64,000 nt of DNA from Escherichia virus TH44. The position numbers and the translations under genes are program-made. Below the pieces are notes generated by a model. It saw only the letters and a program-made list of their open reading frames with translations, made no database searches and was not told the origin of the DNA. The stretch lies in sequence record MT446415.1; one strand, 5' to 3'. Of this stretch, positions 5,495 through 57,657 are shown piece after piece (the stretch's first letter is position 1; each line of letters starts with the position of its first letter).

Positions 5495-5550
5495 CAAAAA
5501 GTAGTGTACACACCCAATGGATGGTGTATAATGAATCCATACTGAGTTAC
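5495..5550 (+). promoter_or_regulatory. T4-type early promoter cassette
   Basis: A-tract, GTGTAC, 17 bp, TATAAT; inverted repeat ATGGAT/ATCCAT flanks the -10; conserved CCATACTGAGTTACC downstream. Confidence 0.6.
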
Positions 5551-5579
5551 CAAATCGTCCGTAAGATGAGAAAAATATC

Positions 5580-6326
5580 ATGACTTTATCAAAAACCAAA
5601 ACGCTGAAAGTTAAACGTCGTCTGGAACACACTCAAGCTTCCGCTAAACGTCGCGGTAAAGACTTTAACCTGGATTTTGATTATCTGGTTAACATTCTTG
5701 ACCAAAAAGTTTGTGCTTATTCTGGTGAGACATTTAATAACTCTATTGAAGGTGAGAAGTTATCATTAGAGCGTTTTAACAATGATATTGGTTATATCAA
5801 AGGTAATGTTATTCCTGTTAAAAAGAAATACAATACCATGCGTTCTGATTGGTCCCTAGATGAGCTTAAACAACGTCGCGATGATGTTGCTGTAAAAATT
5901 GCTCGCCCGTCCGTCAAGAAGATTGAAAAGTTAAATCTGACTGCAGAGAAATGGGAACAGATTAAAAAGTCATATACCCATATTAAGAACATCCAGCACA
6001 AACGTGATAATCGCGTTAAGCATTATGCTCAAATGAGCAAATCAGAGCAGTCCAAAGAAAACCAATTAAAAATGGTTGCTCTGAAGGCTCGCATTGATGG
6101 TTCCCGTGTTGCGGAAGGTCATGAGCTTACTAAATTGAATGTCCTGCTCAAAGGTAATGACTGGAAGGTTACCAAGAAATTAACTAATGCTGAAACGCTT
6201 TTTGATTGCTATGATAAAATCATTCAAGGTCTTGAGCGTTTTGAGAAGATTGGTTTTATTGGTAAATTAAAACTGAAACGTGGTCTGCCTTTGAACGCGT
6301 CAATTTTTAAACTGATTAGAGGTTAA
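5580..6326 (+). CDS. hypothetical protein (T4 srd position); degenerate HNH-like motif
   Basis: 248 aa; CAYSG...LERFNNDIGYIKGNV loosely resembles an HNH motif; size and position fit T4 srd but unverified. Confidence 0.35.
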   Translation: MTLSKTKTLKVKRRLEHTQASAKRRGKDFNLDFDYLVNILDQKVCAYSGETFNNSIEGEKLSLERFNNDIGYIKGNVIPVKKKYNTMRSDWSLDELKQRRDDVAVKIARPSVKKIEKLNLTAEKWEQIKKSYTHIKNIQHKRDNRVKHYAQMSKSEQSKENQLKMVALKARIDGSRVAEGHELTKLNVLLKGNDWKVTKKLTNAETLFDCYDKIIQGLERFEKIGFIGKLKLKRGLPLNASIFKLIRG

Positions 6327-6330
6327 TGTG

Positions 6331-6627
6331 ATGTACTATGCATATGTGCTAGTCCACAAAGATAAAGATGGTTTTGAACGCCCATTGGAGTATAATGGAA
6401 AGGTTACCTTATACACCACAAAAGCGGGCGCAGAATATGAACTTGCCAACTATTCATATACTACAAACCGCTATTTACGCATGGGACGTATTGAAACACG
6501 GTATATTCCCAGAAAATGGTGGTTTGATAAGCGGGAATCAAAAACTGTTTTTCCTACTGAAGAACACGCCCGAGAATTGAAACAGGTTTTATATACTTTA
6601 TATGTTAAGCGAGTAAAATTGGCATGA
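6331..6627 (+). CDS. hypothetical protein (dda.1 position)
   Basis: 98 aa from ATG at 6331 (track start is GTG); SD GAGG. Confidence 0.4.
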   Translation: MYYAYVLVHKDKDGFERPLEYNGKVTLYTTKAGAEYELANYSYTTNRYLRMGRIETRYIPRKWWFDKRESKTVFPTEEHARELKQVLYTLYVKRVKLA

Positions 6628-7952
6628 TTAAATTTGAAGACTTGAACACAGGACAAAAAGAAGCTTTTGATTATATCACTGAAGCTATTCAACGACGTTC
6701 AGGGGAATGTATCACTCTGAATGGTCCAGCTGGTACAGGTAAAACTACTCTGACAAAATTTGTCATTGACCATCTGGTGCGTAATGGAGTTATGGGAATT
6801 GTGCTTGCTGCACCAACTCACCAGGCAAAAAAGGTTCTATCTAAATTGTCTGGTCAAACGGCGAATACAATCCATAGTATCTTGAAGATTAACCCGACCA
6901 CATATGAAGACCAAAACGTTTTTGAACAGCGCGAAATGCCTGATATGTCAAAATGTAATGTTCTGGTTTGTGATGAAGCAAGTATGTATGACGGGGCTCT
7001 GTTTAAGATTATTCTTAACTCTGTTCCTGAATGGTGTACTATTCTTGGGATTGGTGATATGCACCAGCTGCAGCCAGTTGACCCAGGAAGCACACAACAA
7101 AAAATAAGCCCATTCTTTACGCATCCTAAGTTCAAACAGATTCATCTGACTGAGGTCATGCGAAGCAATGCTCCTATCATTGAAGTGGCGACAGAAATTC
7201 GTAATGGTGGCTGGTTCCGTGACTGTATGTATGATGGTCATGGCGTACAAGGTTTTACCTCACAAACCGCTTTAAAGGATTTCATGATAAACTATTTCGG
7301 TATTGTAAAAGATGCTGATATGTTGATGGAAAACCGGATGTATGCGTACACGAATAAATCAGTTGAAAAACTGAACAATATTATTCGTCGTAAGCTCTAT
7401 GAAACGGATAAAGCATTTTTACCGTATGAAGTCCTGGTTATGCAAGAGCCACACATGAAAGAGCTGGAATTTGAAGGTAAGAAATTCAGCGAAACCATTT
7501 TTAATAATGGTCAGTTGGTTCGCATCAAGGATTGCAAATACACTTCCACAATTCTCCGTTGTAAAGGTGAATCGCACCAGTTAGTGATTAATTACTGGGA
7601 CCTGGAAGTTGAGTCAATTGATGAAGATGAAGAATATCAGGTTGACCGCATTAAAGTTTTACCAGAAGACCAGCAACCAAAATTCCAGGCATATCTGGCT
7701 AAAGTTGCTGACACATACAAACAGATGAAAGCCGCTGGTAAACGTCCAGAGTGGAAAGACTTCTGGAAAGCTCGCCGGACCTTCTTGAAAGTTCGTGCTC
7801 TTCCGGTCAGTACAATCCACAAGGCCCAAGGCGTTTCAGTGGACAAAGCATTTATCTATACTCCATGCATCCATATGGCTGAAGCTTCATTAGCGAGCCA
7901 GTTGGCTTATGTTGGAATCACACGAGCGAGGTACGACGCATATTATGTATAA
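6624..7952 (+). CDS. dda: Dda DNA helicase (SF1B)
   Basis: 442 aa; Walker A GPAGTGKTT, DEAS-box LVCDEASM, long colinear identity with recalled T4 Dda. Confidence 0.9.
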   Translation: MIKFEDLNTGQKEAFDYITEAIQRRSGECITLNGPAGTGKTTLTKFVIDHLVRNGVMGIVLAAPTHQAKKVLSKLSGQTANTIHSILKINPTTYEDQNVFEQREMPDMSKCNVLVCDEASMYDGALFKIILNSVPEWCTILGIGDMHQLQPVDPGSTQQKISPFFTHPKFKQIHLTEVMRSNAPIIEVATEIRNGGWFRDCMYDGHGVQGFTSQTALKDFMINYFGIVKDADMLMENRMYAYTNKSVEKLNNIIRRKLYETDKAFLPYEVLVMQEPHMKELEFEGKKFSETIFNNGQLVRIKDCKYTSTILRCKGESHQLVINYWDLEVESIDEDEEYQVDRIKVLPEDQQPKFQAYLAKVADTYKQMKAAGKRPEWKDFWKARRTFLKVRALPVSTIHKAQGVSVDKAFIYTPCIHMAEASLASQLAYVGITRARYDAYYV

Positions 7953-8184
7953 AGTACATAAAGAAGATTTAGATAATCTTATCTATGGTATTCAGGACGC
8001 GGTTGAATTTTTCGAAGATAATCCGACTATCGTCGTGCAGGGTAATTACGTTTTACTGGAACTGAATCTTATTCGGAAACGTATGGCCGCGATTGAATAT
8101 TTTAACAATGAAGAGCCGGGGATTTTTATCTCTGATTATGTTGCTGGTGAAATTCAGAAATTAAAAGAGATGTGCGATGATTGA
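7945..8184 (+). CDS. hypothetical protein
   Basis: 79 aa from internal ATG; overlaps dda stop. Confidence 0.35.
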   Translation: MYKVHKEDLDNLIYGIQDAVEFFEDNPTIVVQGNYVLLELNLIRKRMAAIEYFNNEEPGIFISDYVAGEIQKLKEMCDD

Positions 8185-8866
8185 TGCTATTATTGACTTT
8201 GAAACTCTGGGAAACGGCTCGAAGGGAGCCGTTATTGACCTGGCCCTGATTACATTCGAATCTGACCCTGCTATTGTGGAATCGTTCGAAACCCTGGTTA
8301 ATCGCGGCAAACGCATTAAGTTCAGTCTCGAATACCAAAAAGGAAAACGTCTGTTTGACACAACAACCATGGGTTGGTGGAAAAAGCAATCAGCGGAAGC
8401 ACGTGTTAACCTGGCTCCTTCTGCGCATGATGTTGATACTCTGACCGGTATCCAACAGGCGATTGACTATCTGAATGGCAATGGAATTAACAAATACGAA
8501 AGCCTTATGTGGTGCCGTGGGATGTCTTTTGACTTCCCGTTGTTTGTCGACCTTATCCGCGACCTACAGCGCAATGAGGGGATTCCTGAGCGCGAATTGA
8601 ATACCTATGACCTGGAGCCGGTCGTATTCTGGAACCAGCGTGATATCAGGACAGCAATCGAAGCCTTGTCACTCGTCCGTAAGATGTGTGAAACCCCATT
8701 ACCGAAAGGGACTTTAGATGGATTTGTGGCGCACGATTCGGTACATGACTGCGCGAAAGATATTTTGATGTTGAAGTATGCCCAGCGCTATGCTCTTGGT
8801 TTAGATGAAGTTCCTTCCGAAGAAGATGCAGACCCGTTATCTTTACCGAAAAACGATAAAAAGTAG
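8177..8866 (+). CDS. dexA: exonuclease A (DnaQ-like 3-prime to 5-prime exonuclease)
   Basis: 229 aa; N-terminal exo motif IDFETLG; size and position match T4 dexA. Confidence 0.75.
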   Translation: MIDAIIDFETLGNGSKGAVIDLALITFESDPAIVESFETLVNRGKRIKFSLEYQKGKRLFDTTTMGWWKKQSAEARVNLAPSAHDVDTLTGIQQAIDYLNGNGINKYESLMWCRGMSFDFPLFVDLIRDLQRNEGIPERELNTYDLEPVVFWNQRDIRTAIEALSLVRKMCETPLPKGTLDGFVAHDSVHDCAKDILMLKYAQRYALGLDEVPSEEDADPLSLPKNDKK

Positions 8867-8926
8867 TGTACAAGGCCAATGGAAAGAGACATAATCATCT
8901 CATCAACTACTGATGAGGATAACAAA
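8858..8926 (+). promoter_or_regulatory. T4-type early promoter cassette
   Basis: AAAAAGTAGTGTACAA with dexA TAG stop inside it, 18 bp, CATAAT, then CATCAACTACTGATGAGGA carrying the SD. Confidence 0.6.
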
Positions 8927-9184: not shown

Positions 9185-9933
9185 TGAAACCAGAATTTAT
9201 TGACTTTGATGTTGTAAGTATGTATGTTCGCCCAATTAAACCATTAAAACTTGAGAAACAAAATATGACTATTGAAATTAACAAAACTTATCAACTGATT
9301 GAACCTATTATTCAAAACGCAGCTATGGTTTCTGGATATAATATTCTGACTGATGTTTTAGGTGAAGGTGAATTTATTGTTGAAACTTTTGTAAAAAGTA
9401 ACTGGTTTGATAAAGCATATATTTTGCGTGCACGTCGCCTTGATACAAATGAAGTAGAAAAAATTATGGTTTATGAAGCTGAGATTGAACTCTTCAAAGA
9501 AGTTGAAGAAACTCCTATCAAAGTTGACAAAACCTATCAACTTGTTGGATATGGTGATTTTGATAATACTAATGCATTGAATGCTGGTTGGCGTGTACTG
9601 AAAGGTATTTTTGGATTTGCTCCATTTACCGTTAAAACAGTTAAGTACCACAATCACCAAAGCATCTTTGAATTTACTGCAGTCAATGAATCAGGTGACA
9701 ATCTTGAAGCTATCCTTTATCCGCGCGAATCTGTACTGCTGGAAGAAGTTAGCGTACTGGGCGACCCTATTGACTTGCTATGTAAACCAGTTCAAATCAA
9801 ACGCCCGTTTAATAGTTCCATTTGTGGTTGGGTAACAGACCAGTGGATTGAAGATGGTGTTGAACTCCTGAACGTTGTCCATGCTGGTGAATTTACTGTT
9901 GTACCACGTTCCATGGCTGTTGAAATTTTTTAA
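9184..9933 (+). CDS. hypothetical protein, paralogue family with 10014-10568
   Basis: 249 aa; internal repeat (KTYQL twice); C-terminal module GWVTDQWIEDGVELLNVVHAGEFTVVP shared with the next gene. Confidence 0.5.
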   Translation: MKPEFIDFDVVSMYVRPIKPLKLEKQNMTIEINKTYQLIEPIIQNAAMVSGYNILTDVLGEGEFIVETFVKSNWFDKAYILRARRLDTNEVEKIMVYEAEIELFKEVEETPIKVDKTYQLVGYGDFDNTNALNAGWRVLKGIFGFAPFTVKTVKYHNHQSIFEFTAVNESGDNLEAILYPRESVLLEEVSVLGDPIDLLCKPVQIKRPFNSSICGWVTDQWIEDGVELLNVVHAGEFTVVPRSMAVEIF

Positions 9934-9935
9934 TT

Positions 9936-9995
9936 AAATTTGTGTGCAAACTCTTGGGTCCAGAGTATAATGGTCCCGCTGGAGAATAAACTTAT
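9936..9995 (+). promoter_or_regulatory. T4-type early promoter cassette
   Basis: GTGTGCAAACTCTTGGGTCCAGAGTATAATGGTCCC; -35-like, 18 bp, TATAAT. Confidence 0.6.
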
Positions 9996-10013
9996 TAATC
10001 AAGAGAGAAAATT

Positions 10014-11393: not shown

Positions 11394-11654
11394 ATGAAAT
11401 ACATTAATCGTTCTATTGCAGCACTGGTACTGGCGGTTTCATTGGCTGGTTGTACTGATGCAGATAATGCCATTCGTGTATTAGATGCAAACGGCTATGA
11501 GCAAATCCAAATCACCGGATATAACTGGTTCTCTTGTGGTAAAGATGATTTCCAACATACTGGTTTTACGGCCGTCGGGCCAACTGGTAAGAAAGTTGAA
11601 GGAACTGTTTGTTCTGGATTATTGTTCAAGAACAGTACCATCCGATTTGAATAA
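11394..11654 (+). CDS. putative lipoprotein
   Basis: 86 aa; signal peptide with lipobox LAGC; SD GAGGA; followed by terminator. Confidence 0.55.
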   Translation: MKYINRSIAALVLAVSLAGCTDADNAIRVLDANGYEQIQITGYNWFSCGKDDFQHTGFTAVGPTGKKVEGTVCSGLLFKNSTIRFE

Positions 11655-11676
11655 GGCCTTCGGGCCTTTTTGCTTT
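11653..11676 (+). terminator. rho-independent terminator
   Basis: AAGGCC-TTCG-GGCCTT plus T-run. Confidence 0.65.
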
Positions 11677-13745: not shown

Positions 13746-13748
13746 CCA

Positions 13749-13774
13749 AAAGGACCTTCGGGTCCTTTTTTATT
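13749..13774 (+). terminator. rho-independent terminator
   Basis: AGGACC-TTCG-GGTCCT plus TTTTTT. Confidence 0.65.
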
Positions 13775-13821
13775 ATGTACAAGCCATAAAAATTGCGTTA
13801 AGATGTCCTTGAGGTGAAAAT

Positions 13822-14106
13822 ATGATTATGTCTGATGGAAGTTTAGTTAATCTACAGAATGTTGCTCGTTGTATTATGGAAGCAGGCCTGAGGAAGGTGC
13901 AGGAGCTCCCAGATAGTGACAGGAAGCGAAGTTACTTGTTGGCTGTAAGAGCATCAGCCATGAGCATTAAGGCTGGCCAGAAGGTCCCTGAGGAGCGAAT
14001 TGAAGCACTCCTTGCATTGATATACCATGACCAAGAACATAAAGCTACCATGCGTAGTATGAGAAAAATATTACAGGAGATTGGAAATGACGAACTTCAA
14101 AGTTAA
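13822..14106 (+). CDS. hypothetical protein
   Basis: 94 aa, SD GAGG. Confidence 0.4.
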   Translation: MIMSDGSLVNLQNVARCIMEAGLRKVQELPDSDRKRSYLLAVRASAMSIKAGQKVPEERIEALLALIYHDQEHKATMRSMRKILQEIGNDELQS

Positions 14107-18067: not shown

Positions 18068-18661
18068 ATGATTCAGAAGAGTAAAACATGGGAGCATCTG
18101 AAAAAGATGCCCTCCTTCCTTTATACAAAGGAAGACTTAACCCCCGAATCCCTGCAAAAGATTGTAGACACTGCCAGGTATTCATTGCGTAAAGACCCAG
18201 GTCAGGACCGTGAGCAAGTCATGCAAAGATGTATGGTAGCCACAATGGCTGAACAAGCTATTGCTAAATGGACCTCCGGTTTTTTATGTGGCGGTGATGA
18301 AGATTACGATAATCCTTACTCCTTTGCATTTGATGTAGTTTCGAAGGAAGGGGTAAGAATCGAAGTCAAGACTCATCAGTCTGGTTCCAAATGGATATCC
18401 GTACATACTGGCCACCAGGGCGATTATCCACATGGTTACGGGGTTAATCTTGGTCCCTTTATGCAGCACAAGCTTGCTGACCTTATGATTATGTTTAATG
18501 TAAAAGAGACTCTCAAAGGTTATAGATTTAAACCAAAATTCCTTGCTGGGCCTGGTGCTTTCGTTCCTGAGTCTGGTCTTGTGCAGAAGTCACAAGGGGA
18601 TGGTTGGTACCTCCGTTCTTGTTCAGAAGAAAAATTTCCCTATCACCGGTTTACAAGCTGA
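18068..18661 (+). CDS. putative PD-(D/E)xK-type nuclease (possible denB equivalent)
   Basis: 197 aa from internal ATG; FAFDVV...VRIEVKTH fits D...ExK; lies in the rIIB-to-ndd interval where T4 has denB. Confidence 0.4.
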   Translation: MIQKSKTWEHLKKMPSFLYTKEDLTPESLQKIVDTARYSLRKDPGQDREQVMQRCMVATMAEQAIAKWTSGFLCGGDEDYDNPYSFAFDVVSKEGVRIEVKTHQSGSKWISVHTGHQGDYPHGYGVNLGPFMQHKLADLMIMFNVKETLKGYRFKPKFLAGPGAFVPESGLVQKSQGDGWYLRSCSEEKFPYHRFTS

Positions 18662-18708: not shown

Positions 18709-18984
18709 ATGGAACACGTTACTACTCACAACATCAAACAAATTCTTATCCAAGCACTCAAAAACAACAACATCAATTTTCCAACCCATGAAATTTTTGA
18801 TGTGGCATTCAACGAAGTCCAGGGTCAAGTTGCATATTATGACGTTATCGTTTATCTTTCAGAATTTGAAGTCTACCACCTGACTGAAATTGCTTTCTAT
18901 CTCTATCGTGGAACAGCAGATTTCACTGGGGTTGTGAATGCAGTTGGTGCATATAAAGAAGTTAAAGAACAAATGCACAATTAA
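18709..18984 (+). CDS. hypothetical protein
   Basis: 91 aa from internal ATG directly after the hairpin. Confidence 0.45.
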   Translation: MEHVTTHNIKQILIQALKNNNINFPTHEIFDVAFNEVQGQVAYYDVIVYLSEFEVYHLTEIAFYLYRGTADFTGVVNAVGAYKEVKEQMHN

Positions 18985-18985
18985 T

Positions 18986-19050
18986 TAAAAAGTAGTGTAC
19001 ATCAGTATGGAGTCTATGTATAATGATTCCATACTGAGTTACCAAACAGA
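18986..19050 (+). promoter_or_regulatory. T4-type early promoter cassette
   Basis: AAAAAGTAGTGTACA, 18 bp, TATAAT, then TTCCATACTGAGTTACC; ATGGA/TCCAT inverted repeat around -10. Confidence 0.6.
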
Positions 19051-19062
19051 CTGGAGAATAAA

Positions 19063-19218
19063 ATGAAACCTGCTCAATATGCAATGACTTTATACCTTGA
19101 AGTTAATGGCGATATTACTGAATTTTTTAAATTAATGCAACAGCGCGGAAAAAGTTTTGCAGTTACTGAGCGTCAATTTTACGCTTGCCGTAAAAATACA
19201 TACAATCGTTATGCGTGA
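19063..19218 (+). CDS. hypothetical small protein
   Basis: 51 aa, not in track; SD GGAG after cassette. Confidence 0.35.
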   Translation: MKPAQYAMTLYLEVNGDITEFFKLMQQRGKSFAVTERQFYACRKNTYNRYA

Positions 19219-19489: not shown

Positions 19490-19571
19490 GCAGCAAAACC
19501 TGGTGTCTTATCTGGATATTGTGTATCCCAGTAATTTGCGTTTGTTTTAGTTTATTATTAATGAAACTTGC

Positions 19572-19630
19572 ATAAAAAAGTGTACATCTCCAGTGGTTGT
19601 AGTATAATGAACCTATCAACTACTGGAGAT
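19572..19630 (+). promoter_or_regulatory. T4-type early promoter cassette
   Basis: AAAAAGTGTACA, 17 bp, TATAAT, then CTATCAACTACTGGAG. Confidence 0.6.
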
Positions 19631-19634
19631 GATT

Positions 19635-19751
19635 ATGAAAAAGTTACTTAAAGCTATTTGGAACATGTTTGTGCTGTTTGTTGTCCTGAGCATTTTCCCA
19701 ATTGTTTTTATGATTGACCATGTGCGTGTTTACTTTAACTATTTCTTTTGA
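19635..19751 (+). CDS. small membrane peptide
   Basis: 38 aa, not in track; hydrophobic core NMFVLFVVLSIFPIVFMI. Confidence 0.3.
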   Translation: MKKLLKAIWNMFVLFVVLSIFPIVFMIDHVRVYFNYFF

Positions 19752-19968: not shown

Positions 19969-20210
19969 AACTTTTTAAAGACATTGCAGTTGGTGAAAAA
20001 TTTGTCCTGGGTAATGGTCAACAACTGATTCGCATTTCGCCTTTAATGGATAACAGTGAACGCCCTGTGCGCACTGAAAACTGTTTGGATTATCCTTTTT
20101 ATCAGAAGCGTTTTGCAATTGAAAATAATACTGAGTGTTTCACAGTTGATGAACTGATGGAATCATCAGAAGAAGTTGACTTGTGGGATGGCGCAGTTGA
20201 TGTAGAATAG
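19965..20210 (+). CDS. hypothetical protein
   Basis: 81 aa; TAG stop is part of the next cassette. Confidence 0.4.
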   Translation: MKLFKDIAVGEKFVLGNGQQLIRISPLMDNSERPVRTENCLDYPFYQKRFAIENNTECFTVDELMESSEEVDLWDGAVDVE

Positions 20211-20270
20211 TGTACAAACTCTTGGGAGCAGAGTATAATGCTCCCAGTGGATAATAAAATTTAACTGAGG
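20208..20270 (+). promoter_or_regulatory. T4-type early promoter cassette with hairpin around -10
   Basis: TAGTGTACAAACTCTT-GGGAGCA-gagTATAAT-GCTCCC; perfect 7 bp inverted repeat. Confidence 0.65.
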
Positions 20271-20278
20271 AAATCATT

Positions 20279-20623
20279 ATGTCTAAAGTATTTTTTGGTA
20301 ATCGCAACATTATGTTCTTTAAACAGATTAGCGTATCAGAAGCATTTGATTTAAGTTATTCGGGCGGCACAAAAGCTGTTAACCTTAAAAATTTGATGTC
20401 TGCAGAATTTGCATTCTATCAGGACCCTGAAACTGGTTTCTACAAATTTATTAAGTTCCGCATGACTATGGACCGCGATTATCGTGATGTTTATTATACA
20501 AGTTATGAAAGTGTTGTGAATGCAATTCGTGAAGCTTATGGATTGGATTCGTTATCTCTTGACCGCCTGTATAATGCAAGCCTTTACACCAGCGGATTTA
20601 TTTTAGAACAGCTTCAAAAATAG
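20279..20623 (+). CDS. hypothetical protein
   Basis: 114 aa; TAG stop embedded in next cassette. Confidence 0.45.
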   Translation: MSKVFFGNRNIMFFKQISVSEAFDLSYSGGTKAVNLKNLMSAEFAFYQDPETGFYKFIKFRMTMDRDYRDVYYTSYESVVNAIREAYGLDSLSLDRLYNASLYTSGFILEQLQK

Positions 20624-20690
20624 TGTACAAACTCTTGGGGTCAGAGTATAATGACCCCACTGGAGCACAAAACTTTAACTTACTGAGGAA
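20621..20690 (+). promoter_or_regulatory. T4-type early promoter cassette with hairpin around -10
   Basis: TAGTGTACAAACTCTT-GGGGTCA-gagTATAAT-GACCCC; arms differ from the 20208 copy by two compensatory pairs. Confidence 0.65.
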
Positions 20691-20696
20691 ATTAAT

Positions 20697-21705: not shown

Positions 21706-23085
21706 ATGTCTGACGTTTTAAGTATGATGTCCAAACAGTTCAGTGATTCCATGGGGACCCTTAACCCACGCAGTCTAAAAGACATTATTGATGTGGAAGC
21801 ATTATCATATGCTATCTACACTGTGGAAGGTCGCGCAATCCCAAACATGATTGATGGTTTTAAACCAGTTCACAGATTTGTTATGGCGAGAGCATTAGAC
21901 CTGGCACGTGGTGATAAGAATAAATTCCATAAGGTTGCATCCATCGCAGGTGGCGTAGCTGATTATGGTTATCACCATGGCGAAGCATCAGCGGAAGAAG
22001 CAACTTCTGGTCTGGTCGCAACATATAAAAATGAATACCCCATGTTTGATGGACAAGGCAACTTTGGTTCCAGAATGGTGCCAGAAGCATCATCAGCTCG
22101 TTATGTATTCGCACGGGTTTCAAAGAACTTTTATAACTTGTTTAAGGATACAGAATATGCTCCGGTCCATCCTGATGAAGAACATAAGCCTCCTGCTTTT
22201 TATCTTCCTGTTATTCCTACTGTATTACTTAACGCCACTTCTGGGATTGCTGTTGGCTTCGCTACTGATATTCTGCCTCATTCGTTCCAGGACGTCAAGG
22301 AAGCTGTTAAAGCTATCGTGGAAGGTCGGGAGCCGGTTGCTCCGAAAGTAAAATATCCAGAATTCCGCGGTAAAGTTGTTGAGCTGGAAGAGCCTGGTAA
22401 GTATGAGCTTCATGGCACGTACAAAATGACTTCCAGGACCCAAATGGAAATTACTGAAATCCCGGTCCAATGGAACCTGGAAAAGTATACAAGTAAAATC
22501 CTGGACCCGCTGGAAGAGAAAGGTTTTATCACCTGGAAAGATAACTGCGGCGAGCATGGTTTTGGGTTTAAGATTAAATTCCGCAAAGAATACAAGCTGG
22601 ATGGCACCGAAGAAGAAAATCATGAGAAAATCATGAAAGACTTTGGTCTGATTGAGAAGCTCTCCCAGAACTTAACAGTGCTTAATCACAAAGGCAAGCT
22701 GGCTGAATACACCAACACGCTTGACCTGATTCGTGATTTCGTTGATGTCCGTAAGACTTATGTTCAAGTGCGAATTGACAGTAAGATTAAAGAAACTGAA
22801 GCGGCATTTAAACTGGCCCGGGCAAAAGTCTTCTTTATTAAAGAAGTGATTGATGGTAAAGTTGTTATCCAGGGGAAACCTCGTAAGAAGTTGATTGAGG
22901 AACTCCAGGCGAGTGAAATATATGGCGATTATGCAGAGAAGTTAGTGGCGATGAACATCTACCATATGACCTCTGATGAAGCTAAGAAGCTTGCGGATGA
23001 AGCTAAGGCTAAGAAAGCTGAGCATGAGTACTGGAAGACAACTGACGTTAAAACTGAATATCTTAATGATTTGGAGGCTCTATGA
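21706..23085 (+). CDS. 52: DNA topoisomerase II medium subunit (GyrA-like)
   Basis: 459 aa; long colinear match to recalled T4 gp52 (IPNMIDGFKPV, QGNFGS, YAPVH, active-site Tyr region). Confidence 0.9.
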   Translation: MSDVLSMMSKQFSDSMGTLNPRSLKDIIDVEALSYAIYTVEGRAIPNMIDGFKPVHRFVMARALDLARGDKNKFHKVASIAGGVADYGYHHGEASAEEATSGLVATYKNEYPMFDGQGNFGSRMVPEASSARYVFARVSKNFYNLFKDTEYAPVHPDEEHKPPAFYLPVIPTVLLNATSGIAVGFATDILPHSFQDVKEAVKAIVEGREPVAPKVKYPEFRGKVVELEEPGKYELHGTYKMTSRTQMEITEIPVQWNLEKYTSKILDPLEEKGFITWKDNCGEHGFGFKIKFRKEYKLDGTEEENHEKIMKDFGLIEKLSQNLTVLNHKGKLAEYTNTLDLIRDFVDVRKTYVQVRIDSKIKETEAAFKLARAKVFFIKEVIDGKVVIQGKPRKKLIEELQASEIYGDYAEKLVAMNIYHMTSDEAKKLADEAKAKKAEHEYWKTTDVKTEYLNDLEAL

Positions 23086-23176: not shown

Positions 23177-23204
23177 AGGACCCTTCAGGGTCCTTTTTTA
23201 TTTT
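23177..23204 (+). terminator. rho-independent terminator
   Basis: GGACCC-TTCA-GGGTCC plus TTTTTTATTTT. Confidence 0.7.
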
Positions 23205-23206
23205 AA

Positions 23207-23285
23207 AAAAGTAGTGTACAATCCCCTTGTCTTAGGACATAATGATTCCATACTGAGTTACACAATGAATCACAAAAACTTTGGA
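23207..23285 (+). promoter_or_regulatory. T4-type early promoter cassette
   Basis: AAAAAAGTAGTGTACAA, 18 bp, CATAAT, GATTCCATACTGAGTTACAC. Confidence 0.6.
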
Positions 23286-23292
23286 GAATAAA

Positions 23293-23508
23293 ATGTTTAC
23301 TGCACAACAGAATGAAGGTCAAGAATACATCAACGCTAAATTCAAATCTAACAAAGAAGCTTGCTATTACTACTTTGATATGTTCAAACTGGCGAATTCT
23401 AAAGAAGAACGTAAACAAGCGATTGATGTGATTGTTTCTACTTCCCATATGAAACGTACTGTAGTACAATCATATGCATCAAATTACATGAAATCTATTA
23501 AGGGATAA
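23293..23508 (+). CDS. hypothetical protein
   Basis: 71 aa from ATG with SD GGAGA (track start TTG). Confidence 0.45.
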   Translation: MFTAQQNEGQEYINAKFKSNKEACYYYFDMFKLANSKEERKQAIDVIVSTSHMKRTVVQSYASNYMKSIKG

Positions 23509-25222: not shown

Positions 25223-25534
25223 GCACGATTTCAATAAGGCGTCTGTCCATAAGGATAAGAAGAAAACTGAAATGCAGTCCAAACGTAAGCAGAAGCACAA
25301 GGGGAATCACTATGAGTCATAACTTAGAGAACACCATCACTGGTCAGCGTACACGCGAGCAGGCTTGCTTTGAGGAATTCCTTGGAGCTGATTTTAAGTT
25401 CCAGGAACCAGTTGAACAGATGTATCAGGAATATGTTGTACAGATGGAAAATCATGTGTACAACCCAGAGGAATAATAGTACAATATCCTTACTGAATAA
25501 TTGAATGTCTTATTGAATACTTGAGTAAATTAAA

Positions 25535-39662: not shown

Positions 39663-39667
39663 TATAA

Positions 39668-39695
39668 GGGGACCTTCGGGTCCCTTTTTTATTTT
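39668..39695 (+). terminator. rho-independent terminator
   Basis: GGGACC-TTCG-GGTCCC plus TTTTTTATTTT. Confidence 0.7.
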
Positions 39696-39696
39696 C

Positions 39697-39768
39697 AAAA
39701 AGTAGTGTACAAGCCCCTTGAGCTAAGGCATAATGATTCCATCAACTACTGATAACAACTGAGGAAAT
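39697..39768 (+). promoter_or_regulatory. T4-type early promoter cassette
   Basis: AAAAAGTAGTGTACAAGCCCCTT, 18 bp, CATAAT, GATTCCATCAACTACTGATAACAACTGAGGA. Confidence 0.6.
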
Positions 39769-39772
39769 AAAA

Positions 39773-40135
39773 ATGGAAATCGGCAAAAAATATGAGTTCA
39801 ATCCGCATCGTATTAAATCTTTCATTGGCATTAGTTCATCGAATGCTAGTATGGTCGACATCATCCAAGAAAATGGTGGTTGGTTTGAAGTTAAATCAAT
39901 ATCAAGTTTAGACGGCTATGATTATGTAACCGAAATCATTTGTGCTAATGGTGCAATCTATAATGATGATGGCATGGGTGATGATTATTTTGAACTTAGT
40001 GAAGAAGAGTTTTATTGCTTCCGTGAATACTCCAATTATACAAAAACACCTTCGGGGGCGGTTTCTATTAATTGTGTTGTAGATGCTAATAACGTCGACC
40101 AAATCATTGAACTTCTACAAAAAGCTTTCAAATAG
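39773..40135 (+). CDS. hypothetical protein, three-member paralogue family
   Basis: 120 aa; aligns along its length with 40485-40859 (GK.Y...P..K.FI...G..F.V......G.Y..E...DYFEL.E.EF). Confidence 0.5.
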   Translation: MEIGKKYEFNPHRIKSFIGISSSNASMVDIIQENGGWFEVKSISSLDGYDYVTEIICANGAIYNDDGMGDDYFELSEEEFYCFREYSNYTKTPSGAVSINCVVDANNVDQIIELLQKAFK

Positions 40136-40195
40136 CAGTTTACAATGGGTCTATGGTTGAGATACTATAGACCTATCAACTACATGAGGAAAATA
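40136..40195 (+). promoter_or_regulatory. early promoter cassette variant
   Basis: GTTTACAATG then GGTCTAT...ATAGACC inverted repeat around a -10-like TACTAT, then CTATCAACTACATGAGGA. Confidence 0.45.
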
Positions 40196-40197
40196 AA

Positions 40198-40484: not shown

Positions 40485-40859
40485 ATGATGGAAACTGGTA
40501 AATTTTACGTATTAGACCCTGCTGCTAAAAAACAATTCATCGCTGGTAGCCCTGATGATAATTATAATTCATGCATGGTCAAGTTGATGGAACAGCATGG
40601 CAGTTCCTTCAAAGTCCTGGATATGAGTTATATTGAAGGTGATTATTTTGTTGAAAAAGTTGAAATGAAAGATGGCACTATCCTGAATAGTATGGGTGGA
40701 CCTGATGAGTACTTTGAACTCGCTGAATGGGAATTCTGTCACTTCCTGGAAGTTGATGGCGATGCTCCTGATGTTGATACCCAAACCATTCATGTGCAAG
40801 TCAATCACAAAAATGCCGCAGAAGTCATTGCACTGATTAAAGCAACTTTTGGGGTCTAA
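40485..40859 (+). CDS. hypothetical protein, three-member paralogue family
   Basis: 124 aa; paralogue of 39773-40135; preceded by GGGAACAT/ATGTTCCC hairpin and SD. Confidence 0.5.
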   Translation: MMETGKFYVLDPAAKKQFIAGSPDDNYNSCMVKLMEQHGSSFKVLDMSYIEGDYFVEKVEMKDGTILNSMGGPDEYFELAEWEFCHFLEVDGDAPDVDTQTIHVQVNHKNAAEVIALIKATFGV

Positions 40860-40860
40860 C

Positions 40861-41115
40861 ATGACTAAAGATGATTTCCTGGATGCAGTAGAAAAAGCAA
40901 GCGAACAATTTGAAGTAATGGGTGTACGAGTTCATAAAGACAGAAATTATGGTCTGGATGTTCAAACATACTCATTATGGCTTGTTGGTGAACACAGTCT
41001 TGCAACCAATCTTGTTATGGGGGTTGATACTCATCCTTTATTAGTTAAGTTCAGAAGTATGGAAAAAGCCACCAAGGAAATGATTAAACTTGGCAAATGG
41101 CTTGATAAAATTTAA
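40861..41115 (+). CDS. hypothetical protein
   Basis: 84 aa from internal ATG. Confidence 0.4.
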   Translation: MTKDDFLDAVEKASEQFEVMGVRVHKDRNYGLDVQTYSLWLVGEHSLATNLVMGVDTHPLLVKFRSMEKATKEMIKLGKWLDKI

Positions 41116-41190
41116 AAAGTAGTGTACAACCAAATGGGGCTATGACATAATGGTCCCATACTGAGTTAACAACTAAAACACTGGAGAATA
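41113..41190 (+). promoter_or_regulatory. T4-type early promoter cassette
   Basis: AAAAAGTAGTGTACAA, 18 bp, CATAAT, GGTCCCATACTGAGTTAACA. Confidence 0.6.
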
Positions 41191-41192
41191 AA

Positions 41193-41432
41193 ATGAAATT
41201 ACAACGTGAGAGCATCAAAGATTCAGAAGTTAAAGGCAAATGGTACTTTACAATCCAGGGTAACAATCCAGAAGCTCTGGAAAAAGCTGAAGAAACTTTA
41301 TGTGCGATGGGTTGGAAAGATGAGTGTGATGGTTGTCCTCTTTATGAAGATGGTAGCTCATCTGGTTTCTGGATTCACCACTCTGATGTTGACCAATTTA
41401 AAGCTGACTGGAAAGTCGCTAAGAAAGCGTGA
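41193..41432 (+). CDS. hypothetical protein
   Basis: 79 aa, SD GGAGAA. Confidence 0.45.
   Translation: MKLQRESIKDSEVKGKWYFTIQGNNPEALEKAEETLCAMGWKDECDGCPLYEDGSSSGFWIHHSDVDQFKADWKVAKKA

Positions 41433-41780: not shown

Positions 41781-41784
<4 letters not shown>
41443..41784 (+). CDS. hypothetical protein
   Basis: 113 aa from internal ATG with SD GAGGAAAA. Confidence 0.45.
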
Positions 41785-43445
<1,661 letters not shown>

Positions 43446-46598: not shown

Positions 46599-46636
46599 TA
46601 TAATTATGCTCATGGATGAGCTATTGAGGAAATAAA

Positions 46637-48252: not shown

Positions 48253-49385
48253 TTGAATTATATGATAACTTAATGAAGCTTTGCGCCGAATCCGATAAAG
48301 GTAAGTTTTTCTATACGGATTTTGTTTCTCCATTTGAAACTAAGTTCCGCATCTTTAGCTATAACTATGCTTCCTATAGTGATTGGCTTCTTGATGATGC
48401 GCTGGAGTGTCGTGGTATTATGTTTGAAATGGATGCTAATGGCCCAGTTCGCATTGCCGCCCGTCCTATGGAAAAATTCTTTAATCTGGGTGAGAATCCA
48501 ATGACCATGGACCTTAACCTTGATGAGGTTGTCCTGGTTACTGCAAAAGCTGATGGTAGTTTGGTTTCTACTTATATGGACCAGACTAATATCGCCTTTA
48601 AATCCAAAGGGTCAATCAAAAGCTCCCAGGCTGCTGAATCCTTGCAGGTGTTTAAACAAGAGCATCGCAGTGCATTCAGGGCTCGCGTAACTGAAATCAC
48701 TGAAGCTGGTTATACATGCAATATGGAATATGTTGCACCAACCAACCGCATTGTTTTGCCTTACCAGGAACGTGACCTGATTTTACTGAACGTTCGTCAT
48801 AATGAAACGGGCGAATATATTCCTTATCAGGAACTGTTCAAAGATGCTGCACTCCGTCCTTTCCTGGTTGAAGCATATGACCCGGCGAGCATTGAGAATG
48901 TTCGTGGTATGAAAGAGATTGAAGGCTTCGTCTACGAGTTGGCAAGTGGTCAGAAGTTCAAGATGAAAACAGAATGGTATTGTGCTCTGCATCATACTAA
49001 AGACTCCATTAATAATAATGAGCGACTGTTTGAAGTTGTTGTTGCTGGCGGGGCAGATGATGTTATTGCCATGTTTACTGGCGATAATTATGCTCGCGAA
49101 AAAGTTAATGCCTTTACTGTAACGCATCTGGATTATCTGTCCAATACGCTGGGATTGTTGCTTGATGCTCAGAAACAATTGGCAGGAAAAGACCGTCGCG
49201 AGTTTGCGATTAAAGGTCAAGAGTTGTGCAAACCATACCCGGGATTGTTCTCCGTATTAATGAACACCTATCAACGCCCACAGGAAACTGAACAAACGAT
49301 TGCTCAAATCAATAAAGTTTTCCTTAAAAATCATAAACTTTACATTCCGTCGGACTACCAAGCGGAAGTAATCCTTCCTGAATAA
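48249..49385 (+). CDS. rnlA: RNA ligase 1
   Basis: 378 aa (T4 374); nucleotidyltransferase motif I lysine in TAKADGSL. Confidence 0.8.
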   Translation: MIELYDNLMKLCAESDKGKFFYTDFVSPFETKFRIFSYNYASYSDWLLDDALECRGIMFEMDANGPVRIAARPMEKFFNLGENPMTMDLNLDEVVLVTAKADGSLVSTYMDQTNIAFKSKGSIKSSQAAESLQVFKQEHRSAFRARVTEITEAGYTCNMEYVAPTNRIVLPYQERDLILLNVRHNETGEYIPYQELFKDAALRPFLVEAYDPASIENVRGMKEIEGFVYELASGQKFKMKTEWYCALHHTKDSINNNERLFEVVVAGGADDVIAMFTGDNYAREKVNAFTVTHLDYLSNTLGLLLDAQKQLAGKDRREFAIKGQELCKPYPGLFSVLMNTYQRPQETEQTIAQINKVFLKNHKLYIPSDYQAEVILPE

Positions 49386-49389
49386 TAAA

Positions 49390-49455
49390 AAAGGGGTGTA
49401 CAAGCCCCTTCTTTCTATACATAATGGTTCCATCAACTACTGATGAGGACCAAAA
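49390..49455 (+). promoter_or_regulatory. T4-type early promoter cassette
   Basis: AAGGGGTGTACAAGCCCCTT (the -35 sits in a hairpin loop), CATAAT, GGTTCCATCAACTACTGATGAGGA. Confidence 0.6.
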
Positions 49456-49456
49456 C

Positions 49457-50838: not shown

Positions 50839-50942
50839 TAGAGACCTGTAGCCTTGGTTGGGATATTGTTAGATTTGGTGCATTCTGTTTTTGTTTTGGA
50901 ATTACGGCCACTTTATGTGTTCAAGGTCTTTTTGGAAAGTAG
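50835..50942 (+). CDS. small hydrophobic peptide
   Basis: 35 aa, not in track; TAG stop embedded in the next promoter cassette. Confidence 0.25.
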   Translation: MIETCSLGWDIVRFGAFCFCFGITATLCVQGLFGK

Positions 50943-51000
50943 TGTACAAACTTATGGGAGCAGAGTATAATGCTCCACGGATTATAAAATTTGAGGAATT
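50940..51000 (+). promoter_or_regulatory. T4-type early promoter cassette
   Basis: TAGTGTACAAACTTATGGGAGCAGAGTATAATGCTCCA. Confidence 0.6.
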
Positions 51001-51004
51001 GAAT

Positions 51005-51462
51005 ATGAAAATATTATGGTATGTTGAGAACGCTAATAATATCATGAAGTGTAAAGACGAATTCTTCCAAAAGCTGGCCCGAATTGGCTCTTGCCGCAAA
51101 ACACCTTTGGAAGGTAAAGCTCGATTCTTTATTAAAGAATGTAAAGGTGGAGCTATTACAGAAGTCGAATATTATGCTCCATGGAATGATTTCCCAAGCC
51201 GAGTGTTAGAATTATCCGAGCCTATTCCTTCTGATGTATGGAATTCAATCTTAGATGTTACGGCGTGCTATGAAGAAAACCAATCACTTCATGAAGAAAA
51301 AGAACGTATTCGTGAGCTAGTAAAAAGTTTTGAATACGCGGCTAAACGCCATGGTCAAATGCAATCTGCCGCTGCACTTGGTGATGTTTCTGAAAGTGCA
51401 GCTTATGAAACTGGTAAAATCCTTAAAACCTGTCGCGAAGAACTTTATAAGGAGCTTGGTGT

Positions 51463-53163: not shown

Positions 53164-53442
53164 ATGTTTCCTACGTATTCTGAAATTGTTAAAGTAGTTT
53201 TTAGTCAGATTGTATCTGATTATCTATACGAAAGCGTCGACACGTCGACTGAACTAAAGGTGCATGGTCGTTTGTCTGCTATTCTGGAAATCATGTTCCC
53301 GGATGCAGTTGATGCAATCACTGTTCAACTCACGCCTGGCGCAGCATTTGCAATTGTTCCGTTTAAAATTGATAACCACATTTTGGCTATTTCATGCAAA
53401 ATGGACTTCCAGAAACAAACAGTAGTTGTTGAAGCAATTTAA
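53164..53442 (+). CDS. hypothetical protein
   Basis: 92 aa, SD GAGAAAAG. Confidence 0.4.
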   Translation: MFPTYSEIVKVVFSQIVSDYLYESVDTSTELKVHGRLSAILEIMFPDAVDAITVQLTPGAAFAIVPFKIDNHILAISCKMDFQKQTVVVEAI

Positions 53443-53443
53443 G

Positions 53444-53500
53444 TGTTTACTTTCACCACGGATGGTGTATAATGAATTTCATCAACACATGAGGAAAACA
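53444..53500 (+). promoter_or_regulatory. T4-type early promoter cassette
   Basis: GTGTTTAC, 17 bp, GGATGGTGTATAATGAATTTCATC (same variant as the 5495 copy), then SD. Confidence 0.55.
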
Positions 53501-53502
53501 AA

Positions 53503-55739: not shown

Positions 55740-55770
55740 TGCTTCAAACGGTGCGTGTTATTATTAATAC

Positions 55771-56544: not shown

Positions 56545-56606
56545 GTTTTAGGTGATTCGCTACCTTAGTGCGGCTAGAAAATCGAGGAGCCACCGAATTA
56601 TCTGAT

Positions 56607-56635
56607 TAATGATTTGCGAATCATTATAGTTTTAG
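56607..56635 (+). terminator. AT-rich hairpin with U-rich tail (possible terminator)
   Basis: TAATGATT-TGCG-AATCATTA then TAGTTTTAG. Confidence 0.35.
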
Positions 56636-57103: not shown

Positions 57104-57108
57104 GTTCA

Positions 57109-57135
57109 GGGACTCTTCGGAGTCCCTTTTTATTT
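57109..57135 (+). terminator. rho-independent terminator
   Basis: GGGACTC-TTCG-GAGTCCC plus TTTTTATTTT. Confidence 0.7.
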
Positions 57136-57139
57136 TCCA

Positions 57140-57215
57140 TAAAGGGGTTTACAACAGGGTTGGTCCAGTGCATAATGATTCCATACTGAGTTACACAATA
57201 AAACACTGGAGAATA
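57140..57215 (+). promoter_or_regulatory. T4-type early promoter cassette
   Basis: AAAGGGGTTTACAACAGGG, CATAAT, GATTCCATACTGAGTTACACAA, SD GGAGAA. Confidence 0.6.
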
Positions 57216-57217
57216 AA

Positions 57218-57586
57218 ATGAAAATCAATCTTAACTCATACATCAAAGGTAAAGACCACGACGGCTACAAAGCAATCGAAACTAAAGAGATGCAATGGCA
57301 CTTGTATAAAGAACAATTTGAATTCGTTTCTTGCATGACTCCAGAAGGTCCTTCTGATGACTTCTCCTGGAAAATTATGGTAACAAACTTTTTTACTGGC
57401 GACACATATGAATTGAAAACTTTGATTCTTGGTAAGATTCGTTGTAAGACCTATGAAGATGAAGAAACTGGTTATTCTGAAGATGTTACATGGTATCAAA
57501 ATGGTCGCACTACTGCTGATGATTTGATTGAAAAAATGAAAGCTAAGGGTGAATTAAATTTAGATAATTGGATTAAAGTCGCATAA
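57218..57586 (+). CDS. hypothetical protein
   Basis: 122 aa. Confidence 0.45.
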   Translation: MKINLNSYIKGKDHDGYKAIETKEMQWHLYKEQFEFVSCMTPEGPSDDFSWKIMVTNFFTGDTYELKTLILGKIRCKTYEDEETGYSEDVTWYQNGRTTADDLIEKMKAKGELNLDNWIKVA

Positions 57587-57587
57587 A

Positions 57588-57655
57588 ACAGTTTACTTTG
57601 GTACAGGTTATGATATTATAAACCTGTACCAACAAATGAAAACAACTGGAGAATA
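57588..57655 (+). promoter_or_regulatory. early promoter cassette variant with 10 bp hairpin
   Basis: GTTTAC then GGTACAGGTT-atgatattata-AACCTGTACC perfect inverted repeat around a -10-like TATTAT. Confidence 0.5.
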
Positions 57656-57657
57656 AA

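Follow-up and report, generated by a model that had tools for sequence, protein, structure and literature searches.

The 64,000-nucleotide stretch of the Escherichia virus TH44 genome analysed here (sequence record MT446415.1; referred to below as the window) carries repeated modules of 60–90 bp that are very probably the early (Pe) promoters of this T4-type Gaprivervirus phage. The curated set consists of 18 strong copies and two weak or degenerate ones (4771 and 13776), 20 in all. Every one of the 18 strong copies is on the + strand, directly 5' of an open reading frame (ORF) with a Shine-Dalgarno (SD) sequence, and the genes behind the cassettes are classic early genes (modB, modA, srd, motB, ndd, the motA operon and asiA).

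Megablast of three large pieces of the window against phage genomes gave 95–96% identity across 90–98% of each query, and the best records were those of the genus Gaprivervirus (TH41, UPEC01, MN01, RZ, PSD2001 and the VR7/VR20 group). By these matches the window, whose GC content is 40.6%, is assigned to this genus of T4-like coliphages. Transfer of the UPEC01 and VR20 annotation showed that it covers both of the large early regions found in T4-type genomes, with the + strand as the direction of early transcription. Early block 1 runs from gp61 through modB, modA, srd, dda, dexA, motB, gp39, rIIA/B, denB, ndd, gp52 and motA to asiA, and early block 2 contains rnh, gp32, frd, td, nrdA/B, denA, rnlA, alc, pseT, cd, gp31 and 30.9 to 30; the two blocks are separated by the late tail-fibre genes (t, 38-34), which occupy the - strand at 25.8–36.4 kb. 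There were no Rfam family matches at gathering thresholds across the whole window.

The repeated motif is far more frequent than expected by chance, and its bias to the + strand is complete. The strict pattern GTGTAC-N15-20-TATAAT has six matches, all on the + strand, against 0.07 expected (approximately none in shuffled controls). The tail CCATACTGAGTTACC has eight matches with up to three mismatches against 1.17 expected, including five + strand copies with at most one mismatch, and the tail CCATCAACTACTGATGAGGA, also with up to three mismatches, has four matches against 0.01 expected. A relaxed -35/-10 pattern gave 21 hits on the + strand and two poor hits on the - strand. A profile hidden Markov model built from the 18 strong copies recovered only those 18 at E<0.01, a result that is circular as far as membership is concerned; at the same threshold it had no match on the - strand and none in the late block, and the weak copy 4771 obtained no score. 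A preliminary description of this DNA had listed 16 copies and two degenerate ones; the motif is present within 0–10 nt of each of those coordinates and all 18 sites hold, but two copies had been missed (4169, upstream of modB, and 25456, upstream of asiA). Calling the copies near-identical was too strong, as the best paralogue pairs are 64–76% identical over 80 nt, with exact blocks of 15–30 nt.

In all 18 strong copies, the hexamer G(T/G)(G/T)T(A/G)C is followed after 17–18 nt by (T/C/G)A(T/C)(A/T)(A/C)T, which is equivalent to TGTACA or TTTACA with a 16–17 bp spacer. Most copies have an A-rich UP-like tract just 5' of the first hexamer (AAAAAGTA, AAAAATA or AAAAGG), and 12 of the 18 have an A, usually that of CCA, 7 nt past the -10, which is the predicted +1; the SD and ATG follow 20–43 nt downstream of it. 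If the A of CCA is the start, the conserved tails are the first 15–20 nt of the transcripts (AUACUGAGUUAC... or AUCAACUACUGAUGAGGA). The distance between the upstream stop codon and the -35 is 0–11 nt in 12 of the 18 strong copies, and in five (4169, 8866, 20210, 20623 and 50942) the stop is part of the cassette; there, just as had been proposed, the TAG of (A/G)TAGTGTAC or TAGTTTAC ends the upstream gene. The two conserved tails are both real but do not cover a third subfamily (subfamily A; 9942, 20210, 20623 and 50942), whose signature is AAACTCTTGGGnnCAGAGTATAATGnnCCC. The weak variant seen at 4771 and 13776 has the form TGTACAAG-N15-TAAGAT-GT(T/C)CCT, with 17 bp between TGTACA and TAAGAT, and both copies are probably weak promoters. 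The copies, designated throughout by the first position of the -35 hexamer (or of TGTACA), are as follows.

4155..4225, + strand: modB cassette; -35 GTTTAC 4169-4174, -10 CATAAT 4193-4198, ATG 4226; upstream TAG stop inside; -35 enclosed by a hairpin, GGAGTA..TACTCC; counterpart in T4 likewise upstream of modB; newly added copy
4757..4830, + strand: modA weak variant within the 3' end of modB; TGTACA 4771-4776, 17 bp, TAAGAT 4794-4799, leader CTATCAACTACTGATGAGGA, ATG 4831
5490..5579, + strand: srd cassette; -35 GTGTAC 5504, -10 TATAAT 5527-5532, predicted +1 A 5539, leader AUACUGAGUUACC, ATG 5580; T4 srd promoter at the same junction
8852..8926, + strand: post-dexA cassette; TAG stop inside; -35 GTGTAC 8866, -10 CATAAT 8890-8895, leader AUCAACUACUGAUGAGGA, ATG 8927; T4 counterpart at 8218
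9928..10013, + strand: motB promoter, subfamily A; -35 GTGTGC 9942, -10 TATAAT 9966-9971, stem GGGTCC/GGTCCC around the -10, ATG 10014
13748..13821, + strand: terminator and weak variant; GGACCTTCGGGTCC-T6 (13748-13769), TGTACA 13776, TAAGAT 13799-13804, ATG 13822
18981..19062, + strand: cassette of the denB-ndd variable block; -35 GTGTAC 18995, -10 TATAAT 19019-19024, GGAG SD, ATG 19063
19566..19634, + strand: ndd.4-homologue cassette; -35 GTGTAC 19580, -10 TATAAT 19603-19608, ATG 19635; long stem in which the spacer TCTCCAGTGG.. pairs with ..CTACTGGAGA, which contains the SD
20196..20278, + strand: subfamily A copy; TAG stop inside; -35 GTGTAC 20210, stem GGGAGC/GCTCCC around TATAAT 20234-20239, ATG 20279; downstream 114-aa ORF without T4 homologue
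20609..20696, + strand: subfamily A copy upstream of ndd; TAG stop inside; -35 GTGTAC 20623, stem GGGGTC/GACCCC around TATAAT 20647-20652, ATG 20697; folding z -3.2
23177..23292, + strand: terminator and cassette; AGGACCCTTCAGGGTCCT-T6 (23177-23194), -35 GTGTAC 23214, -10 CATAAT 23238-23243, leader AUACUGAGUUAC, GGAG SD, ATG 23293 (71-aa ORF, then motA)
25442..25534, + strand: asiA cassette; -35 GTGTAC 25456, -10 TACAAT 25480-25485, ATG 25535; folding z -3.0; T4 counterpart at 161211; newly added copy
39666..39772, + strand: gene 32 terminator and cassette; terminator 39666-39687, -35 GTGTAC 39705, -10 CATAAT 39729-39734, ATG 39773 (frd.2-like ORF)
40124..40197, + strand: frd.3 cassette; -35 GTTTAC 40138, -10 GATACT/TACTAT 40161-40168 in the loop of the stem, ATG 40198; T4 counterpart 146875
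41108..41192, + strand: frd.1 cassette; -35 GTGTAC 41122, stem ATGGGGCT/GGTCCCAT around CATAAT 41146-41151, GGAG SD, ATG 41193; T4 counterpart 146143
49382..49456, + strand: cassette of the alc-like ORF; terminator-like hairpin AAGGGG-TGTACAAG-CCCCTT followed by CTTTCT, with the -35 (49396) in its loop; -10 CATAAT 49420-49425, ATG 49457; T4 counterpart upstream of alc
50928..51004, + strand: subfamily A copy; TAG stop inside; -35 GTGTAC 50942, stem GGGAGC/GCTCC around TATAAT 50966-50971, ATG 51005 (window-specific allele)
53431..53502, + strand: cassette at the junction of cd.3 and the next ORF; -35 GTTTAC 53445, spacer stem CACCA/TGGTG, -10 TATAAT 53468-53473, ATG 53503
57108..57217, + strand: terminator and 30.8 cassette; AGGGACTCTTCGGAGTCCCT-T5 (57108-57127), -35 GTTTAC 57147, -10 CATAAT 57171-57176, leader AUACUGAGUUAC, GGAG SD, ATG 57218; the terminator-promoter pair is also present before 30.8 of T4
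57577..57657, + strand: 30.7 cassette; -35 GTTTAC 57591, 10-bp stem around TATTAT 57614-57619, GGAG SD, ATG 57658

The syntenic regions of T4 were scanned on the early strand, and counterparts were recognised there by consensus and synteny, not from a mapped list; the T4 records NC_000866 and AF158101 annotate no promoters, the sole mention being one misc_feature that names Pe133295. For 14 of the 18 strong copies, T4 has a GTTTAC-N17-TAnnAT site at the corresponding junction, namely before modB, srd, motB.2, motB, ndd.6, ndd.4, motA, asiA, frd.3, frd.1, alc, cd.2, 30.8 and 30.7. Thus, most copies are old promoters that have been inherited in place. The 'early promoter Pe133295' of the T4 record, at the cd.3/cd.2 junction, is the counterpart of window copy 53445, and the T4 motB (7215; GTTTACAAACTCTTGGGACCAGAGTATAATGGTCCC) and 30.7 (129918) promoters are, respectively, 81% and 79% identical to window copies 9942 and 57591. 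In tblastn searches, the first ORF behind the strong cassette had a T4 homologue in 12 of the 18 cases (modB, srd, motB, ndd.4, ndd, asiA, frd.2, frd.3, frd.1, the alc-like ORF, 30.8 and 30.7), as did modA behind the weak copy 4771, and none was found in T4 for the ORFs behind 8866, 13776, 18995, 20210, 23214, 50942 and 53445. The copies cluster in the denB-ndd and 32-frd blocks, and six of the 18 strong copies, together with weak copy 13776, precede ORFs without a T4 homologue. With 12 of the 18 in front of T4 homologues and 14 at a shared T4 junction, the claim that the cassettes bracket exactly the genes absent from or variable relative to T4 has to be dropped. Two small ORFs of the window, at 41781-42011 (76 aa) and 58765-58977 (70 aa), are absent from all relatives compared for block 2, and neither has a cassette beside it.

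In the T4 early consensus, GTTTAC occupies positions -36 to -31 and an A-rich tract covers -40 to -44 (PMC1524935), and T4 early promoters have additional conserved positions outside the sigma-70 elements (PMC2988021). The window copies share the A-rich UP-like tract, the -35 hexamer at -36 to -31, the 17-bp spacer, the TATAAT-like -10, extra conserved positions and the leader motif CTATCAACTACTGAT. Of the T4 early promoters, those preceding ndd.6 and motA have the leader CTATCAACTACTGATAC, and shorter forms of it precede ndd.4. The window promoters differ from those of T4 in having G at -34 (GTGTAC or GTGTGC) in 12 of the 18 copies, whereas GTTTAC is present in all 14 T4 counterparts; this G is distinct from the preference for G at -33 that was reported for RB49, RB43 and Aeh1 (PMC1524935). 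Further differences are that the window -10 is often CATAAT, that a lineage-specific leader, GATTCCATACTGAGTTAC, takes the place of the T4 ACAACTATCAACTACTGATAC at several junctions, that the motB-type cassette occurs four times in the window and once in T4, and that T4, unlike the window, has no promoter directly upstream of ndd.

Many of the copies are of the kind already described as promoter-early stem-loops (PeSLs) for the phage pairs RB49/phi1, PST/T4 and nt-1/KVP40 (Arbiol 2010; Comeau 2014; PMC2839356; PMC4122927). As in PeSLs, the upstream stop, AT-rich tract, early promoter, stem-loop, SD and start codon follow each other, the register of the stem varies (enclosing the -35 or the -10, within the spacer, or upstream), and some copies adjoin indels between close relatives; copy 49396 has the G4-loop-C4 form given as typical of RB49 PeSLs (PMC4122927). 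The window differs in that most of its stems are of 5–13 bp without a U-tract, most of its copies precede conserved T4 genes and not ORFans, and indels are not enriched at its cassette-bearing junctions. The PeSL match made in the preliminary description therefore stands in part: early-promoter anatomy, early-gene orientation, many stem-loops and some abutting terminators agree with it, but the stems are significant in only about half of the copies. We found no paper on early promoters or PeSLs of Gaprivervirus or of VR7/JS98-type phages, the genome papers of VR7 and JS98 possibly lying outside the searched set.

The strongest competing explanation is that the cassettes are primarily mobile regulatory units, which insert, delete or swap the ORFs they flank and mark accessory, non-T4 content. 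The window was aligned with eight relatives, six of which span both early blocks, CJ20 covering block 1 only and VR20 block 2 only; breakpoint edges, defined as clustered ends of collinear alignment blocks, numbered 73. Seven of the 73 fall within cassette spans, which make up 3.6% of the sequence (a 2.6-fold enrichment per base, p=0.017). At the level of gene junctions, however, there is no enrichment: five of the 20 cassette junctions are broken (about seven when 50942 and 13777, missed by the automatic gene call, are added), as compared with 29 of 80 other junctions (Fisher p=0.43). Individual cases do conform to exchange at cassettes. Among close relatives, exchange boundaries lie exactly at cassette edges at 4165, 19042/19068, 20192, 20268 and 50998-51010. 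Some relatives lack the 20210 cassette and the ORFs preceding it, the boundaries being 20192 and 20268, and among the records examined this copy was seen only in the window, UPEC01, MN01 and SP18. The 50942 cassette is kept in all seven relatives that cover block 2 and is followed by three downstream arrangements, each starting exactly at the SD/ATG. CJ20 lacks ORF 3915-4169, the deletion reaching the edge of the 4169 cassette, and PSD2001 and P479 have a mosaic 18995 cassette, which matches exactly as far as the spacer and diverges from there on, as does the ORF behind it; the stem of this mosaic is still paired. These cases, the per-base enrichment, the motB-type cassette at sites that lack it in T4 and the experimental precedent of RB49/phi1 (PMC2839356) all speak for mobility. 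They are set against the T4 homologues and T4 synteny of most copies, the absence of enrichment among junctions, and the fact that most indels of the window start and end away from any cassette (2044/2321, 11655, 17750/18067, 21159/21552, 24125, 41790/42008, 52685 and 58749/58955). Comparison of relatives thus yielded local cassette-bounded differences along with many indels that have no cassette nearby, and favours the notion of mobile units driving gene shuffling weakly. We regard mobility as the primary nature of the cassettes as possible but rather unlikely, and the idea of a mobile cassette is tempered by the finding that cassettes are no more prone to be indel boundaries than other gene junctions.

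Two further differences from the relatives involve cassettes. UPEC01 has a 91-bp tandem duplication (window 13766-13856; 18108-18289 in the compared UPEC01 stretch) that takes in the terminator end, the weak variant of the promoter and some 13 codons at the start of the ORF behind it. At 5446-5871 and 5871-6176, the region of the srd promoter and the beginning of the gene are either ~76% identical to PSD2001/P479 or not alignable, with flanks at ~96%, a pattern that suggests allelic replacement including the 5504 cassette. Separately, RZ and P479 carry homing-endonuclease genes at gene ends, all missing from the window, at three sites (after gp61, ~1031; in the gp59/gp32 gap, 38665; and in the nrdA/nrdB gap, 46607-46627); these insertions explain several breakpoints unrelated to cassettes.

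With regard to paralogue similarity, 11 of 14 cassettes are closer to their best paralogue in the window (0.64-0.76) than to the T4 orthologue (0.55-0.66), and T4's own promoters are likewise closest to each other (up to 0.82). Subfamily A occupies one place (motB) per T4-like record and two to four places in Gaprivervirus and related records. Such a pattern of similarity and copy number would fit occasional copying or gene conversion among cassettes. By eye, no obvious terminal repeats or target duplications of the kind expected for a transposon or a miniature inverted-repeat transposable element were found at the copies, which have one orientation and conserved junctions.

Turning to the stem-loops, RNA folding of 70-nt windows gave z below -1.8 for 10 of the 20 copies (mean z -1.58), and the composite description of a promoter plus stem-loop fits roughly half to two thirds of them. 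Copy 18995 has a 13-bp stem, CAGTATGGAGTC / GATTCCATACTG, with the -10 box in the loop (-23 kcal/mol, z -5.2); in copy 40138 the stem GGGTCTAT / ATAGACC(T) also holds the -10 box in its loop (z -4.2), as does the 10-bp stem GGTACAGGTT / AACCTGTACC of copy 57591 (z -3.3). In copy 19580 the spacer is paired with the SD region, and the loop consists of the -10 box and leader (z -4.0). Strong terminators of the GGACC-TTCG-GGTCC-T6 type are found just upstream of four copies (13748, 23177, 39666 and 57108), and at 49391 there is a G4/C4 hairpin followed by a T-rich run, the -35 being held in the loop. In the commonest geometry, the hexanucleotide at positions -10 to -5, counted from the -10 hexamer, pairs with the one that directly follows this hexamer. 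Covariation was assessed on 23 distinct sequences from the window, seven relatives and T4, all with TGG at a conserved spacer position and chosen blind to pairing. The stem around the -10 was paired in 98.6% of the cells, as compared with 86% after shuffling and 38–62% when the register was slid; three of its six pairs change on both sides (22 cells), G-U being tolerated. The variants GGGACC/GGTCCC, GGGGTC/GACCCC, GGGAGC/GCTCCC and GGAGTC/GGCTTC occur across paralogues and orthologues, and these compensatory substitutions show that the promoter-embedded stem is under selection. The tolerance of G-U pairs points to a role at the RNA level. With the predicted start within the 3' arm, such a hairpin could not form in the promoter's own transcript but only in RNA arriving from upstream.

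These stems bear on a second alternative, namely that the cassettes are ordinary early promoters, in which stems, leaders and paralogue similarity are a side-effect of constraint on promoter strength and of common descent, without a selected structure or a role in recombination. The extra conserved positions of T4 early promoters (PMC2988021), the copies that lack a significant fold and the negative outcome of the SD-masking test given below would all be expected in that case. Three observations run counter to it: paired double substitutions preserve the 6-bp stem across paralogues and orthologues, the ndd.4 promoters of T4 and of the window pair spacer with SD by unrelated sequences, and leaders are homogenised within each genome but different between genomes. 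We consider this alternative improbable.

Masking of the SD is clearest at 19580, where the probability that the SD is unpaired rises from 0.00 in read-through RNA to 0.60 in the transcript of the promoter itself; 49396 and 4169 are weaker cases. The T4 counterpart of 19580 (166807) pairs CTGTTCTTCC with GGAGGAACAG, the same architecture in unrelated sequence. With the SD in the 3' arm, only the promoter's own transcript of 19580 should be translatable. In T4 genes e, soc, 49 and I-TevI, long transcripts mask the ribosome-binding site, which becomes accessible when transcription starts within the hairpin. Copy 19580 and its T4 counterpart resemble these classical cases in that the promoter is inside the hairpin and the 3' arm contains the SD, and differ in that the internal promoter is early here and late or middle there; across the 18 cassettes overall, unlike the classical cases, the masking effect is no larger than in control genes.

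A third alternative, a family of middle promoters dependent on MotA and AsiA or else a chance AT-rich motif, can be dismissed as extremely improbable: motA and asiA are encoded by the phage, MotA itself being an early product (PMC2988021), and the -10 boxes are sigma-70-like, but the MotA box, with the consensus (a/t)(a/t)(a/t)TGCTTtA and a centre near -30, where it replaces the -35 element (PMC1524935), is absent from all 18 aligned copies (no TGCTT near -30), each of which has a -35-type hexamer (GTGTAC/GTTTAC) at the correct 17-bp spacing, and neither the complete strand bias nor the six strict-pattern matches against ~0 in shuffled sequence would be expected.

Under the preferred reading of the cassettes as early promoters, host sigma-70 RNA polymerase would recognise the A-rich UP-like tract, the GTGTAC/GTTTAC -35 and the (T/C)ATAAT -10, as suggested by their anatomy and T4 biology, and would start ~7 nt past the -10, usually at the A of CCA. 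The transcript would open with the brief conserved leader, and a strong SD, in many cases GGAG, would precede the early gene. In about half of the copies, the predicted hairpin has its 5' arm in the spacer, the -10 in its loop and its 3' arm extending from the discriminator into the first transcribed bases; it may mark or insulate the gene boundary on read-through RNA, as an attenuator, 3'-end protector or processing signal, and at 19580 it would hide the SD. PeSL stems of RB49/phi1, which are stronger G/C stems than those seen here, attenuated a reporter, and terminating or attenuating stem-loops and the mini-circles formed from PeSL pairs have been demonstrated experimentally for RB49/phi1 only (PMC2839356). 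The shared 60–90 bp could, in addition, serve as homology patches for the phage recombination system, a secondary property and not the reason why the elements exist; such patches would fit the lineage-wide homogenisation, the motB-type cassette at three further sites and the few exchanges at cassettes.

Several observations weigh against this reading or parts of it. A generic sigma-70 scan of the cassette regions gave 70 hits against 55 and 63 against 52 in shuffled sequence, barely above chance, so recognition of the family depends on its extended, family-specific conservation, and such a scan alone cannot tell these promoters from noise; the -35 TGTACA fits the sigma-70 consensus at only four of six positions. 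Early timing, start sites and promoter strength are deduced from sequence. About half of the copies have only a weak stem or no hairpin, and most stems have no U-tract and so are not classical terminators. General masking of the SD by hairpins in read-through RNA was tried as an explanation and rejected: accessibility rose from 0.42 to 0.62 on truncation in the cassettes and from 0.42 to 0.55 in controls (Mann-Whitney p=0.28). The similarity among paralogues could reflect lineage-specific selection and not gene conversion.

The hairpin loop itself has been inverted in two relatives. In the orthologue of the 50942 cassette in UPEC01 and TH41, the 10-nt loop AGAGTATAAT is precisely inverted to ATTATACTCT, with the stem arms GGGAGC/GCTCCC intact (window 50956-50977; UPEC01 22585-22606 in the compared stretch; TH41, MT446412.1, 4187-4256), and this removes the -10 box from the coding strand. 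A scan of IMG/VR with TGGGNNNATTATACTCTNNNCCC was uninformative, since this pattern is the reverse complement of the normal hairpin and finds only the same sites on the other strand; flank-anchored BLAST was used instead and found the inverted loop in two of 99 matching records. These come from two separate sequencing projects, which makes an assembly error unlikely. In the T4 record, a note at 133300-133313 reads 'inverted complement of previously reported sequence; corrects the early promoter Pe133295'; these 14 nt are exactly the loop, including the -10 box, between the hairpin arms GGTAGAG and CTCTACC, so that the correction is the same kind of flip as that of UPEC01. A speculative extension, to which we give little credence, is that the -10 stem is a selected element in itself, each cassette serving in DNA as an early promoter and in RNA from upstream as a boundary hairpin, and that recombination between its arms or template switching flips the loop, switching off the promoter while the hairpin is kept. 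If loop inversion recurs, hairpin promoters would form a simple heritable on/off device for individual early genes.

Gaprivervirus includes many candidate therapy phages, usually annotated without regulatory features, and the present result is a ready-made early-promoter map for one member of the genus. Compared with the PeSL papers, in so far as their text is accessible, it adds compensatory changes within the stem and evidence that promoter and leader have been homogenised across the lineage. The stem covariation, the lineage-wide -34 G and the loop inversion in two relatives are minor additions; otherwise the result would not surprise a T4 specialist and leaves the knowledge of T4-type gene regulation unchanged.

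Six copies share a common SD block, (C/T)TGGAGAATAAAATG or CTGGAGATGATTATG, both of which contain GGAG. The GGAG SD of six cassette-driven genes, mostly present as the block CTGGAGAATAAAATG, was noted at 19046-19065, 19621-19637, 23276-23295, 41176-41195, 57201-57220 and 57641-57660, and in subfamily A CTGGAG comes right after the predicted +1 (9980-9985 and 20661-20666). The T4 RegB endoribonuclease targets GGAG within SD sequences, the MotA mRNA being one example (PMC2988021); by analogy, the GGAG-bearing early mRNAs driven by the cassettes may be RegB substrates.

Two local features of the gene order were also seen. Just 5' of gp39, at 11653-11668, there is a terminator-like hairpin, AAGGCCTTCGGGCCTT-TTTG, at the point where six relatives have an extra ORF of ~405 bp and where RZ and P479 have larger insertions. 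The window has two frd.2-like ORFs (39691-40135 and 40485-40859); the first (39773-40135 from its ATG), with 79% aa identity to T4 frd.2, lies between gene 32 and frd.3 behind its own cassette, and looks like a duplication or insertion of a promoter plus ORF relative to the T4 order 32, frd.3, frd.2, frd.1.

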